From NCBI GenBank assembly GCA_964647565.1, contig CAZYIM010000002.1, positions 16,235 through 80,234 on the forward strand: a stretch of 64,000 bases of DNA, read 5' to 3'. The translations under genes were made by a program, and so were the position numbers. This DNA is from an uncultured Methanosarcinales archaeon (GTDB taxonomy: Archaea; Nanobdellota; Nanobdellia; Woesearchaeales; CAZYIM01). Within the stretch, counting starts at the first letter, position 1; each line of letters opens with the position of its first letter. Below, one piece after another: positions 17,938 through 57,321 of the stretch. The notes below the pieces were generated by a model, which saw only the letters and a program-made list of their open reading frames with translations, was not told the origin of the DNA and did not search any database.

Positions 17938-19380
17938 TTGAAAGAGAAGAGGTTTGTTAGTTTTTTGTTAGTTGTAGTTTTATCTATGGCTTTGGCTCTT
18001 GTTTTTTTGGATTTTGTTCCTTCTGGTGGTTTGGCGGGTGTTGGTTTGAGTTGTGATTCTGTTTGTTTTGATGGTGGTTATAGTCGTGGTTTTTGTTTGC
18101 CTGAGAGTGCGGGTTGTGTTATTGAGGGTAGTGTTCATGAGGGTGTTGGTGATGTTTTTTGTTCTGAGCGGTTGTCTGTTGATTCTTTTTGTTGCTGTTT
18201 GGGTATTAGTCAGGATACTGATGGGGACCGAAATGTTTTGACTAAGTCTGTTGGTGTTGAGTTTGTTTATGCGGTTGGTCAGAGGGTTGCGAAGGTTGAG
18301 GGTGAGGATGTTTTCTTTTTTGTGAATGATCATTTGGGTAGTCCTAGGCGGGTTTTGGATGTTGGTGGTGCTGTTGTTTCTGAGTTGGATTTTTTGCCGT
18401 TTGGTGGTGAGATGACTGCTAGTGGTGAGGATTTTAAGTATACTGGCAAGGAGTTGGATTTTGATTCTGGTTTGCATTATTATGGTGCTCGTTTTTATGA
18501 TTCTGTTCTTGGCAGGTTTGTTACGCCGGATATTGTTGAAAAGTTTCCTAATCCTTATGTCTATGTTGCGAATAATCCTATGAGAAATATCGATCCTACA
18601 GGTGAGCAGGTTGTGAATCTTGCTGGCCGGCAAAAACAATTAGCAGCCGTAACTAGTTGGACCAAAAAACACATGCCTGAGCCTGTCTATAATGTCCTGA
18701 ATTTTGTTTTAGGATTCGATGAGTCTATGGAGACTAGAATGAAGAATTCACTGACAGATATGCTCCTGCCTATGTCTTCAGTTGAAAAGGTTGCTAAGAA
18801 GGGGGGTAGCAAGATACTTGACAAGGTGGGATCCTGGTTTCGGAAAAAGTTCAGATCTGCGCCAGTTAAGCAATATGGTCCTCATTCTAACAGGGAATTC
18901 GGAAGGATATACAACCAATTGCGAGAGTGGGGTGCTGATTGGGAGGCGGACGATTTTCTTAAGCTTCACCAGGCAGACCAGGTTCAATACGGAGATCTGG
19001 GATTTAATGTGTTTGTAAGCAAGAATCCGACTGGAGGATACTGGAAGTCCAGTGATATATTTACTGACAGGCTAGGTGGTCGAATCAATCTGGGACCTGA
19101 GCTTGGTGTCACAATAATGGATATGCCGCGAGTCCCTTACTTTTGGGGGTTTGGTAGAAAACGAATGAAAGATGCCACTGCCTTTGAGGCTTCGGTTGTG
19201 ATGCACGAACTTCAGCATAAGATGAATCCTGGTATGTCTGAAAAAGGAGTGGTTTGGCAGACCATTCGTCGAAAGCTAGGGTTGGATGTGGACTACATGC
19301 GGCCTAGCGAGGATTTTGTGCTGATTAATAACAGGTTAAGTGATAATTATCTAGACATGGCTAAGAACGGTATCAAATGA
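17938..19380 (+). CDS. RHS repeat-associated core domain protein with divergent C-terminal (toxin-like) domain; orphan-like cassette
   Basis: N-terminal signal/TM, Cys-rich module, then RHS-core signature GLHYYGARFYDSVLGRFVTPD...NPYVYVANNPMRNIDPTGE. A unique roughly 260-aa C-terminal region follows, containing VMHELQH. It is paralogous to 25877-27286 over the first ~220 aa only. Confidence 0.7.
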   Translation: MKEKRFVSFLLVVVLSMALALVFLDFVPSGGLAGVGLSCDSVCFDGGYSRGFCLPESAGCVIEGSVHEGVGDVFCSERLSVDSFCCCLGISQDTDGDRNVLTKSVGVEFVYAVGQRVAKVEGEDVFFFVNDHLGSPRRVLDVGGAVVSELDFLPFGGEMTASGEDFKYTGKELDFDSGLHYYGARFYDSVLGRFVTPDIVEKFPNPYVYVANNPMRNIDPTGEQVVNLAGRQKQLAAVTSWTKKHMPEPVYNVLNFVLGFDESMETRMKNSLTDMLLPMSSVEKVAKKGGSKILDKVGSWFRKKFRSAPVKQYGPHSNREFGRIYNQLREWGADWEADDFLKLHQADQVQYGDLGFNVFVSKNPTGGYWKSSDIFTDRLGGRINLGPELGVTIMDMPRVPYFWGFGRKRMKDATAFEASVVMHELQHKMNPGMSEKGVVWQTIRRKLGLDVDYMRPSEDFVLINNRLSDNYLDMAKNGIK

Positions 19381-42346: not shown

Positions 42347-42976
42347 TTAGTCTTTAAGAAAACTCAATAAGTCAAAGATTTTCTTTCTTAAAAAAGTCTT
42401 TTTCTTTTCCAGAGAATCCATGTGTGTCTTGAGATCAGACATCTGCTTGTTGATTGTTGCGGATTTAGAAATGATATTGAATCCCTTTGCACTCTCTATT
42501 AATTCTTTGAATTCCTTCTCCAGGTTTAGCCTCAGATCATCTATGTCATCAAGTTTTTTCTCGATATTGGTCTTATAGTTCAGGAACTTCTCAAAGTTCT
42601 TTATGATGTGTTTGCTTTCCTCTGTGTATTTCTCAACAGATTCCTTTTTTTTGCTGATATTCTTGAGCATACTTTTCTGGAGTTCCTCAATTTTTTTCTT
42701 GTGTTGTGCACTTTTCTCAATCAAGGGGTTTAGGAAGCTCTTTTTGTTGCTAAGATCGGTCTCAATCCTTTCCGCCAGATTTTTCAACTCATCCATTCTG
42801 ACTTTTGAGAGATCTACGTCTTTTTCTTCTTCAGCTATCTTATCCTCAATTAGTTCGAGCTCTTCCACAAGTTTATTGATTCTTGATTTGACCTTGTCCT
42901 CGTCAGAAAGCAATTTCTTGATCTCGTCAGTTTCCTTGGAGATGTTTTCCCTTTCAATCTTGATGTCTGAAATCAT
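42347..42976 (-). CDS. coiled-coil protein (possible C-terminal part of interrupted gene)
   Basis: 209 aa K/E-rich coiled coil. In the same frame as 43007-43579, separated by a single TAG. Confidence 0.4.
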   Translation of the reverse strand: MISDIKIERENISKETDEIKKLLSDEDKVKSRINKLVEELELIEDKIAEEEKDVDLSKVRMDELKNLAERIETDLSNKKSFLNPLIEKSAQHKKKIEELQKSMLKNISKKKESVEKYTEESKHIIKNFEKFLNYKTNIEKKLDDIDDLRLNLEKEFKELIESAKGFNIISKSATINKQMSDLKTHMDSLEKKKTFLRKKIFDLLSFLKD

Positions 42977-43006
42977 GGATGCGTACTTCTGCTCATGTTC
43001 CTTTAT

Positions 43007-43579
43007 CTATAGTGCTGCTTTTTCAACGAGATCTTCATATTCTTTCTTCTGGTTCTCAATCTCTGTCCTGAGATTCTTCTGAGCATCCTGATATTCATGG
43101 ATTTTCTTAAGATCATCTTTCATGTCTGAGATTTCAGGGCCCATTCTTGACTGCAGGTTCTTGAACTCATCCTTGATTGTATTAAATGATTCAGTCTCGC
43201 TGTCTAAAACCCTGATTGCAGATTCTACTTTCCTGATAAATGCATCTTTTTTGGATGAGTACTCTGTCTGTTTTACTGCTATCTCTTTCTTGCTCAACCT
43301 TCTTTCAACCAGGAAAACCTTTGAAAGAGAGTATTCGATGCTTATCAGACCCTGTTCTTCAAGAAAGTTAGCCCATTCCTGGACTACCATTGGGCTGACG
43401 TTTAGCTCTTTAGCAGCTACATTGAGTTCAAGCTTCTTTTCCTTGGCTACCAGAGCAACAAGCCTGTCCACACCCGTTTCAATCTTATCCATAGTTATTC
43501 TGAAGAATGAGCAGTATAAAAAGATTTCTATTTGATGATGCTGCATTAAAGATAGAAAATAAGTATTCATCTCTGGCAC
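43007..43579 (-). CDS. HTH-domain plus coiled-coil protein (possible N-terminal part of interrupted gene)
   Basis: Winged-HTH-like LNVAAKELNVSPMVVQEWANFLEEQGLI followed by coiled coil. A likely start is the internal MDKIETG. Confidence 0.45.
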   Translation of the reverse strand: MPEMNTYFLSLMQHHQIEIFLYCSFFRITMDKIETGVDRLVALVAKEKKLELNVAAKELNVSPMVVQEWANFLEEQGLISIEYSLSKVFLVERRLSKKEIAVKQTEYSSKKDAFIRKVESAIRVLDSETESFNTIKDEFKNLQSRMGPEISDMKDDLKKIHEYQDAQKNLRTEIENQKKEYEDLVEKAAL

Positions 43580-43776
43580 AGATGGACTTTCTGCGAAAGT
43601 CCTACCCTCCCAAGGGTTACGCCCCTTGAGGACGTGTGCGGCTTTCGCCTTTGGCTCAGTCCCACTCTTTAACTAGCCCTTCGGGAATGCATATTGTCGG
43701 CTCGCCCGGCCATGGTTCGCAAGCCTCTTTGCGAACCCGAGAACGAACGAAGTGAAGTGACCATGAATGCTTATTT
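43556..43776 (+). repeat. GC-rich structured repeat element, copy A (terminal inverted repeats AAAATAAGTATTCAT / ATGAATGCTTATTTT)
   Basis: 221 nt, at least 50% GC in AT-rich intergenic DNA. It is homologous to 61505-61784 along its full length and shares a perfect internal hairpin GGTTCGCAA-GCCTCTT-TGCGAACC. Terminal inverted repeats are 14-15 bp. Confidence 0.55.
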
Positions 43777-43796
43777 TATGATACTAGAACTTGTCT

Positions 43797-53422: not shown

Positions 53423-53647
53423 ATGGCATCAACAACAATCCAGCTTGAGAAATCGCTTGTCGATTCGCTAAAAGAGATTCGACAATATCCTAGGCAGACA
53501 TATAACGAACTTATTGAACAGATGATTAAAGTGTTTAAGGCTGTAAAGGAAAGAAACCAGTACGATGAATTCCTGCATAAGGTGCAGAGCGCAAAGATGA
53601 AGGAATTATGGGATAACAAGGAAGATGAGGTTTGGGATGACGCTTAA
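53423..53647 (+). CDS. putative antitoxin (small partner of MazF-like toxin)
   Basis: 74-aa acidic protein overlapping the downstream toxin gene by 23 nt. Confidence 0.4.
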   Translation: MASTTIQLEKSLVDSLKEIRQYPRQTYNELIEQMIKVFKAVKERNQYDEFLHKVQSAKMKELWDNKEDEVWDDA

Positions 53648-53951
53648 ATCTGGTGATGTAGTACTGGCCAGGGTCCAATTCACAGACACTTTCGAGATCA
53701 AGAAGAGACCTGTCCTCATATTGTTTGAGGAATTTGATAATGTAGTTGTTGCAGGTATTACTAGCAATCTGGGCATGAAGGGAATTCGGTTGACTAAAAA
53801 AGAGGGTGCGCTCAAAGATAGTGTTATTAAACTGAACTATATATTCACTGTTTCGAGTGTTATGATCGAGAAGAAATTGTTCTCATTATCTCCAGAAAAA
53901 AGAAATATTGTTTATAAAGGTTTGAGGACTAAGATTGATGGCCTGAAATAA
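53625..53951 (+). CDS. MazF/PemK-family toxin-like endoribonuclease
   Basis: GDVVLARVQFTDTFEIKKRPVLILF...VVVAGITSN...DSVIKLNYIFTV matches the PemK/MazF pattern. Confidence 0.55.
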   Translation: MRFGMTLKSGDVVLARVQFTDTFEIKKRPVLILFEEFDNVVVAGITSNLGMKGIRLTKKEGALKDSVIKLNYIFTVSSVMIEKKLFSLSPEKRNIVYKGLRTKIDGLK

Positions 53952-56231: not shown

Positions 56232-56747
56232 TTAATCAATTATTTCGTTAATCTTTGCAATAAACTTTTTTGCTTTTTCGTATATTTCTTCAACTCTTCT
56301 TTGCGTGTATATTTTTGTGGCACTGTATCTGCTCACTGAGCTTTCAGTTCTTGCTTCCTTGAAGTAGTCTATGTAATCATCTTCAAATATCTTGTGAGCT
56401 TGGTCTAGAAGCTCTAAGTCTTCTTTTTCAATCTCATCTGGCACAAGAAGATGGCTGAGAGCGATTTGTGTTGAGTAGTGATCATCTGTTTCATATCCTT
56501 TTGTTAGAATTATAGCTTTTGCTAGATATAACATGGAGTAATAGCAGATAGTGATGGTCCAGTAATCCCTTGCAGGCTCATCAGATTCTTTGATGGATCT
56601 TGCCAGATCAAAACTATCATTTCCTTTTTTTACAAACTTTTTTATCTTAAAGCTGGCGTTGCTTTCTCTTATGAAAAACTTGTGTGCTTCTGACTCTTTC
56701 AAGAGTTTATTAAATTCTTTTTCATATGTTTCTTTGTTAAATTCCAT
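56232..56747 (-). CDS. HEPN-like helical protein (partner of adjacent nucleotidyltransferase)
   Basis: 171-aa all-helical protein overlapping the upstream nucleotidyltransferase gene by 11 nt. The arrangement is typical of MNT-HEPN pairs. The HEPN Rx4-6H motif is not clearly seen. Confidence 0.35.
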   Translation of the reverse strand: MEFNKETYEKEFNKLLKESEAHKFFIRESNASFKIKKFVKKGNDSFDLARSIKESDEPARDYWTITICYYSMLYLAKAIILTKGYETDDHYSTQIALSHLLVPDEIEKEDLELLDQAHKIFEDDYIDYFKEARTESSVSRYSATKIYTQRRVEEIYEKAKKFIAKINEIID

Positions 56748-57321
56748 TTTTATTCTTCCAGATAATGTTCCAGAAATATTCTTCTCCGTGCAGTATTATA
56801 TGTTTTTTTAGTATTTCATTTGTAAGATTATGTTCTTCTTCATTTAACATGGCTTTGAATTCTTTTCTTGAAAAGAATAAGGGATTTACTTTTACATCAT
56901 ATAGGTGCTCGAATTGTGAAAAATTAATATTGTTTTTTCCATCTTTATTTACGGCGCAGATATCAACATCACTTTTCTTCCTGTGTGTTTCATTTGCTCT
57001 TGATCCAAAAATTATTAAAGTATATTCTCCCTCAGGTAAATTCTTTTTAATTAACTTGAATTCAGGGTATTTTGTTAAGAAGGAATCTGTCATTTTCCGT
57101 TCAGCTAGGATGAGATAGTTTTTTGTGATGTTATCATCCTTCTTTAATGATACAAGCTTGATGTTTCCTTTCTGATTGATTCTGAATAATTCCTTATTTG
57201 CTTCGATAAGTCTGTGTGTTGTAGTATTTGGTACACTTGATTCTATTGAAAGCTGTCTGATTGGTATATCATCATTCATGTGTTTTCCTAAAAAATATAT
57301 TAATCTAAAAAGATTTCCCAT
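56737..57321 (-). CDS. minimal nucleotidyltransferase (MNT) domain protein with N-terminal wHTH
   Basis: LIIFGSRANETHRKKSDVDICAV matches the GS-x9-13-DxD nucleotidyltransferase motif. N-terminal HTH-like segment. Confidence 0.55.
   Translation of the reverse strand: MGNLFRLIYFLGKHMNDDIPIRQLSIESSVPNTTTHRLIEANKELFRINQKGNIKLVSLKKDDNITKNYLILAERKMTDSFLTKYPEFKLIKKNLPEGEYTLIIFGSRANETHRKKSDVDICAVNKDGKNNINFSQFEHLYDVKVNPLFFSRKEFKAMLNEEEHNLTNEILKKHIILHGEEYFWNIIWKNKNGI

Follow-up and report, generated by a model that had tools for sequence, protein, structure and literature searches.

A two-copy intergenic element with inverted termini and a conserved core, a candidate structured RNA in an uncultured DPANN archaeon

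MITEs with structured interiors are known from both prokaryotic domains, for example the Correia- and ERIC-type repeats of bacteria and the SM-type elements of the archaeon Sulfolobus. The element described here resembles them in its size of about 220–280 nt, its non-coding, intergenic nature, and its strong predicted fold, and like them, it has inverted termini and dispersed copies and shows a lineage-specific insertion. The end-paired stable RNAs, which include Y RNA/YrlA, 6S RNA, SRP RNA, and RNase P RNA, provide a second comparison, since they share with the element a terminal helix made from both ends, branched internal hairpins, and an invariant core with optional expansion hairpins. A third is given by the scaffold RNAs of mobile elements (the omega RNAs of TnpB and IscB and the bridge RNA of IS110), which are likewise structured, about 150–250 nt long, tied to mobile DNA, and composed of conserved scaffolds and variable hairpins. 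Orphan copies of such scaffold RNAs are known. DPANN archaea live on the cells of hosts and have tiny genomes, in which RNase P is not always identified. To our knowledge, almost no non-coding RNAs or mobile elements of their own have been described.

The stretch of DNA that was analyzed (the window, 64 000 nt) derives from the chromosome of an uncultured DPANN archaeon. For the proteins encoded near the element, the best named relatives come from Pacearchaeota, Woesearchaeota, and Nanoarchaeota MAGs, and the window carries an archaeal-type ProRS, a Ski2-like helicase, and an archaeal type IV pilus-like operon. Exactly two copies of the element, 18 kb apart, were found in the window with an nhmmer profile, and there is no third copy in about 69 kb, comprising the window and 2–3 kb beyond each of its ends. 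Copy A (43556–43777, 222 nt; nhmmer, 254.6 bits) and copy B (61505–61784, 280 nt; nhmmer) were delimited by their inverted termini and by alignment to each other; no strand is assigned to the copies or to the parts described below. A first-pass annotation of this DNA had placed copy A at 43556–43776 and had proposed that inverted termini bound it and that it is homologous over its whole length to copy B. The left end, the termini, and the homology are all confirmed, whereas the right end of copy A is at 43777. The homology runs from end to end, identity being 92% in the 3′ 133 nt and 81% in the 5′ 84 nt, and the sole gap in the alignment is a 60-nt insertion in copy B (61589–61648), directly after GTGTGCG. 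The conserved blocks quoted in that annotation are indeed exact in both copies and absent elsewhere in the window, and shuffled sequences lead one to expect 0 matches.

With a GC content of 52%, compared to about 38–43% in the surrounding DNA, the element forms a GC island. It contains just short ORFs, different in each copy and none consistent across them, and a coding element was rejected. Copy B is identical in four other metagenome contigs, and both loci are 99.5–100% identical across the metagenome contigs of the same population. No presence/absence polymorphism was seen, as every metagenome contig of this population has both copies. An acyltransferase gene (63112–63891 of the window; 7851–8333 of contig L032) is called as 259 aa in the window and in one contig, whereas the call in a further contig from this population is 160 aa.

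The terminal arms of copy A, AAAATAAGTATTCAT (43556–43570) and ATGAATGCTTATTTT (43763–43777), are 15 nt long and 93% complementary, with one T opposite G that would be a G·U pair only if the + strand is the RNA. The arms of copy B (61505–61518 and 61771–61784) are 14 nt long and 100% complementary. Inside the left terminus is a variable hairpin, H1, which is GGACTTTC-TGC-GAAAGTCC in copy A (43584–43602) and GCCCTCCT-TTC-AGGAGTGC in copy B (61532–61550). Next is a 28-nt core, AAGGGTTACGCCCCTTGAGGACGTGTGC (43612–43639), identical in copy B (61560–61587); a hairpin, H2, lies within this region of copy A (CAAGGG, 43611–43616, with CCCTTG, 43623–43628). Block II, TTGGCTCAGTCCCACTC (43651–43667 in copy A), carries a CAC whose partner in the predicted folds is the GTG of the core. 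A mini-hairpin can be read from the sequence as CCC-TTC-GGG in copy A (43677–43685) and as CCC-TGC-GGG in copy B (61685–61693). It is followed by H4, a perfect 9-bp hairpin, GGTTCGCAA-GCCTCT-TTGCGAACC (43714–43737), which has its match in copy B at 61722–61745. The 60-nt expansion of copy B, missing in copy A, holds two hairpins, hp1 (61597–61619) and hp2 (61628–61646, extended by GGACAC/GTGTTC). The T-runs at the ends of the element are short, only 3–4 long. An 8-mer, TGATGATG, is present upstream (+ strand) of both copies, at 43533–43540 and 61464–61471, 16 and 34 nt from the left terminus; this may be chance. Compared with dinucleotide shuffles, both copies fold far better, whichever strand is taken. 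The z-scores are −4.3 (+ strand) and −3.9 (− strand) for copy A, and −6.2 (+ strand) and −6.0 (− strand) for copy B.

Is the element a member of a known RNA family? The covariance models of Rfam 15 gave 0 matches at gathering score in the whole window. At E ≤ 10, copy A, copy B, and L007, a metagenome contig with a distant relative of the core that is described below, gave chance-level matches only, with no family common to them. These models include Y RNA/YrlA, 6S RNA, group I and II introns, self-cleaving ribozymes, and omega RNAs. ARAGORN at its default settings found no tRNA in the element, and at relaxed thresholds, it gave differing, inconsistent calls in copies A and B; a tRNA-like element was rejected for lack of a cloverleaf at default settings and for the inconsistency of the relaxed calls. 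Thus, the earlier failure to match the element to RNase P, SRP, or tRNA is borne out, and the match to a known Rfam family that had been named as contrary to a new element is absent. Signatures of RNase P, SRP, group I and II introns, hammerhead, and K-turn were also sought by eye and rejected, with partial look-alikes such as GAAAGTCC of copy A not being kept in copy B.

The element thus differs from the end-paired stable RNAs in having no covariance-model match to any of them and in being present as two copies 18 kb apart. Sequences that define RNase P, SRP, and Y RNAs are missing in at least one copy and are not conserved between A and B. A Y RNA with Ro60 was considered and rejected, since the adjacent 903-aa VWA protein has no TROVE/Ro60 match and is part of the pilus-like operon; unlike in the Y RNA system, this neighbor is not Ro60. 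The element differs from the scaffold RNAs of mobile elements in that the scanned window ORFs contain no TnpB, IscB, or IS110 recombinase domain, in the lack of an Rfam match, and in its variable part, which is a self-complementary hairpin and not a guide. Among the window ORFs scanned, none had a transposase, integrase, or reverse transcriptase domain, and a retron, an integron attC site, and an IS110 or TnpB partner were rejected for want of a reverse transcriptase, integrase, or recombinase domain in them.

Other collections were also searched. Viral collections gave nothing relevant, the terminus being unmatched in viral contigs, and the element was unmatched in plasmid and phage collections. 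A genome collection scanned with block II, which proved not to be the conserved block, gave a chance match only. A full-text literature search with the core sequence returned unrelated primers only.

The two copies have diverged very unevenly. In H1, 11 of 19 bases differ (58%), compared to about 6–8% in the rest of the element. Nevertheless, H1 is self-complementary in both copies, as the first-pass annotation had noted: four of the eight pairs have changed on both sides and are still paired, and one has become a mismatch. Outside H1, when MFE pairs are predicted from one copy alone, a substitution in the other copy is about as likely to disrupt a pair as to preserve it. Thus, A–B covariation is essentially confined to H1, the other helices being either invariant or uncertain. 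Since H1 has changed so far with its pairing kept, it would be under pairing constraint only, and the rest of the element under sequence constraint. If the divergence of H1 is taken as the age of the duplication, this suggests that the other ~200 nt have been held by sequence constraint.

A search of a metagenome collection with 19 nt of the core yielded three matches. Two of these were dismissed as chance, because they lie in GC-rich coding DNA and the similarity does not extend. The third is on L007, an unrelated, AT-rich DPANN-like contig, which carries 27 of the 28 core bases (AAGGGTTNCGCCCCTTGAGGACGTGTGC; core match, AAGGGTTcCGCCCCTTGAGGACGTGTGC). The site is the 200-nt spacer that separates rpiA from a tRNA-Met gene, and the end of the core is 2 nt away from the mature 5′ end of the tRNA. 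A profile of A and B aligns L007 over 108 nt, spanning the core, the region of the insertion in B, and block II, with a score of 27.4 bits, while chance matches obtained via an exact core seed (the same 19-mer or a 16-nt substring of it) score ≤ 11.4 bits.

The core of L007 is followed by two hairpins in the same order as in copy B, with different sequences, and then by a GCTC(A/G)GT..CAC block. In a sequence-only MAFFT alignment, hp1 retains all 8 of its pairs between copy B and L007, and both bases differ in 4 of these, compared to 0 in slid controls. The hp2 hairpin and its extension stem correspond by eye; they are 2 columns out of register in the MAFFT alignment and were left uncounted. 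Beyond the 28-mer, there is no significant plain sequence similarity to L007, and no copy of the inverted termini was found in L007. Hence, the core and its neighboring architecture are conserved independently of the termini. Copy A has lost the two-hairpin expansion, which has positional counterparts in L007; presence in B and L007 and absence in A is the usual behavior of a peripheral RNA domain. The first-pass annotation had read the compensatory pattern as evidence of selection on RNA or ssDNA structure and not of a degenerating MITE. Selection on structure is supported by the compensation in H1 and by the L007 core with its two drifting hairpins. The choice of RNA in particular is not, as the strand evidence is ambiguous and an ssDNA fold is possible.

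We tentatively suggest that the element is an undescribed, DPANN-restricted small structured RNA and that the cassette carrying it is closed by a helix of the two termini, a reading that we place somewhat short of probable. An invariant core beside stems that drift yet still pair is typical of a functional folded nucleic acid and not of a decaying MITE. Together with the optional expansion and the predicted multi-branch fold closed by the ends, it would give the element the look of functional structured RNAs and not that of a MITE which has recently spread or is decaying. The evidence comes from three independent sequences only (copy A, copy B, and L007). The inverted termini and the lineage-specific insertion described below speak for mobility and are features that a MITE would have.

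In the proposed RNA, the element would specify a non-coding transcript of about 190–280 nt in DPANN archaea, and the two copies described here would be paralogous cassettes, each self-contained. The AT-rich inverted termini and a GGCAC/GTGACC extension would form the closing helix, which would lead into a multi-branch junction with three parts. The first would be H1, whose sequence would be free provided that pairing holds. The second would be a central domain on the 28-nt core, consisting of H2 and a long-range GTG...CAC helix to block II that would enclose the optional two-hairpin expansion, and the third would be the perfect 9-bp hairpin, H4. In outline, the core would be the functional center, most plausibly a platform that binds a conserved protein or RNA partner, and the peripheral hairpins would be scaffolding. 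The cassette would have arrived at its present sites through insertion. A bolder form of this proposal, in which the element represents a new DPANN-specific RNA class, with the core as an active or binding center, possibly self-processing, and with a cassette that has spread and has termini doubling as the closing helix, is in our opinion unlikely. Self-processing is considered because the L007 core ends so close to the mature 5′ end of a tRNA-Met whose gene lacks a promoter-like motif of its own.

The genomic setting of the two copies bears on how they came to be there. Copy A is located inside the co-directional pilus operon and is antisense to it on the + strand. Copy B is located just downstream of a PHP phosphoesterase gene, between it and a ParE toxin–antitoxin pair, and is co-oriented with them. 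Thus, the copies have opposite orientations relative to their neighboring genes, in unrelated intergenic contexts. In relatives with pilus ATPases that are ~70% identical, the order of the operon is VWA protein, 317–332 aa protein, DUF192, 385–387 aa protein, and ATPase, and a third relative has a 127-nt spacer where DUF192 stands in the others. Copy A occupies the position of DUF192, of which there is no remnant in the window. Since relatives have the same pilus operon without the element at this site, copy A is a lineage-specific insertion and not a syntenic gene, although the relatives compared are distant, at 51–71% protein identity. Downstream of the nearest relative of the PHP gene, at the site of copy B, there is no spacer, and synteny with the nearest relative ends at copy B, beside the toxin–antitoxin genes. 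No homologue of the element was found in ~80 kb of related DPANN DNA, nor in the synteny around homologues of the PHP, PEP-utilizing-enzyme, and ATPase genes. Segmental duplication and island att sites were rejected because the flanks are unrelated and there is no integrase.

Several other features of these regions were observed. The homologue of the continuous 385–387 aa pilus-operon protein of the relatives (42347–43492, − strand) is interrupted by an in-frame TAG at 43007–43009, giving ORFs of 161 and 209 aa, and two other metagenome contigs show it as still more fragmented gene calls. The gene may be split or a pseudogene, or the stop codon may be read through. Toxin–antitoxin-type modules (MazF, 53625–53951; a HEPN/MNT pair, 56232–57321; ParE, 62237–62560) lie between and just after the two copies. 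Direct repeats of ~520 nt with 77–79% identity (18027–18549 and 25990–26515) are paralogous coding segments of proteins of 480 and 469 aa that flank an RHS/YD-repeat cluster (19694–27286).

The insertion history is what would be expected of a structured MITE, a non-autonomous transposon mobilized in trans via its 14–15 nt termini, with hairpins that are by-products or serve transposition and have no RNA function. The perfect or near-perfect termini fit this explanation, as do the two dispersed copies in unrelated contexts and opposite orientations, the position of copy A where relatives have a DUF192 gene or a 127-nt spacer, and that of copy B next to toxin–antitoxin genes at the end of synteny. 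However, neither copy has an abutting target-site duplication; the best candidates, GATA and TAT, are offset by ≤ 2 nt and are inconsistent between the copies. The first-pass annotation had held that many near-identical copies with target-site duplications and no covariation would mean a plain MITE; only two copies were seen in ~69 kb and none in ~80 kb from relatives, a very low copy number for a structured-interior MITE in the DNA examined.

Furthermore, the similarity between A and B stops at the right terminus but runs ~10 nt past the left one, where 8 of the next 10 bases match (TTAAAGATAG vs. TTAATGATAT). The element has no known partner transposase, with no transposase domain in the scanned ORFs of the window, and the contrast in divergence between H1 and the rest is unlike neutral decay. 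It also differs from structured-interior MITEs in having a multi-branch fold and not one long palindrome, and in a 28-nt core that is kept, with its hairpin architecture, in a lineage without the termini. We consider a structured MITE doubtful, but it is the second choice after a structured RNA.

The element might also act in cis within transcripts made for other genes, as ERIC- or Correia-type repeats do in bacteria. It would then be an orientation-independent hairpin cassette, transcribed only within neighboring mRNAs and serving as a terminator, processing site, or stabilizer. The element has no strong promoter of its own, and all three sites would be compatible with such a role: copy A is inside a co-directional operon, copy B is just downstream of the PHP gene, and the L007 copy is between rpiA and a tRNA-Met gene without its own promoter-like motif. 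A generic hairpin, however, needs no 28-nt core that is invariant between distant lineages, and the fold is multi-branched and not a single long palindrome, so we regard a cis element as improbable.

The setting of the core in L007 was analyzed further. The tRNA-Met gene (449–522, within 249–522 of L007) has no TATA-like motif upstream. The strongest promoter-like motif of the spacer (15.7 bits, 289–274) lies on the other strand and is directed into the 3′ end of rpiA. Given that the tRNA-Met gene has no promoter-like motif of its own, transcription must pass through the element in that orientation. The T-loop of this tRNA is TGCGAAT instead of the usual TTCGAAT.

Which strand of the element would be the RNA? 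The evidence conflicts. The + strand is favored by G·U pairs in well-defined helices (the terminus of A, two hp1 pairs of B, and the hp2 extension), which are A–C mismatches on the opposite strand. The left flank also matches the local promoter profile on the + strand, which would place the start at the first base of H1, but this match is weak, 6.6 bits for copy A and 3.7 bits for copy B, compared to 9–17 bits for real promoters. The − strand is favored by lower folding energies for B and L007, by G..A-type loops, by the co-orientation of copy A with its operon, and by the read-through towards tRNA-Met in L007. The local promoter consensus, CGAAAnnTTTATAWA, starts 37 nt before start codons, which points to mostly leaderless mRNAs. 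A 40-nt repeat that holds a promoter is found at 28334–28373 and 29724–29763.

The loops of the − strand raise the question of whether the fold is one of ssDNA, that is, the ends or recognition hairpins of HUH/Y1-type transposition or replication, as in the palindrome-associated elements of the IS200/IS605 kind. The − strand has two C–G-closed GNA triloops, C-GAA-G and C-GCA-G, that swap between the copies and remain GNA, and C–G-closed GNA triloops form unusually stable DNA mini-hairpins. However, the element has inverted termini, which IS200/IS605-type elements lack, there is no TnpA or TnpB domain in the window ORFs scanned, and the sequences of H1 and H4 are unrelated. Such an ssDNA fold is, in our judgment, very improbable. 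Thus, we favor a structured RNA first and a structured MITE second, followed by a cis element and then an ssDNA fold.

Whichever of the first two applies, the element would be new for these organisms: either a new functional RNA of DPANN archaea or the first structured MITE-like element described for them. In either case, the 28-nt motif and the fold would provide a handle for searching DPANN genomes and metatranscriptomes. The location of the L007 core directly upstream of a tRNA gene without a promoter-like motif gives a testable lead on the processing of tRNA leaders.
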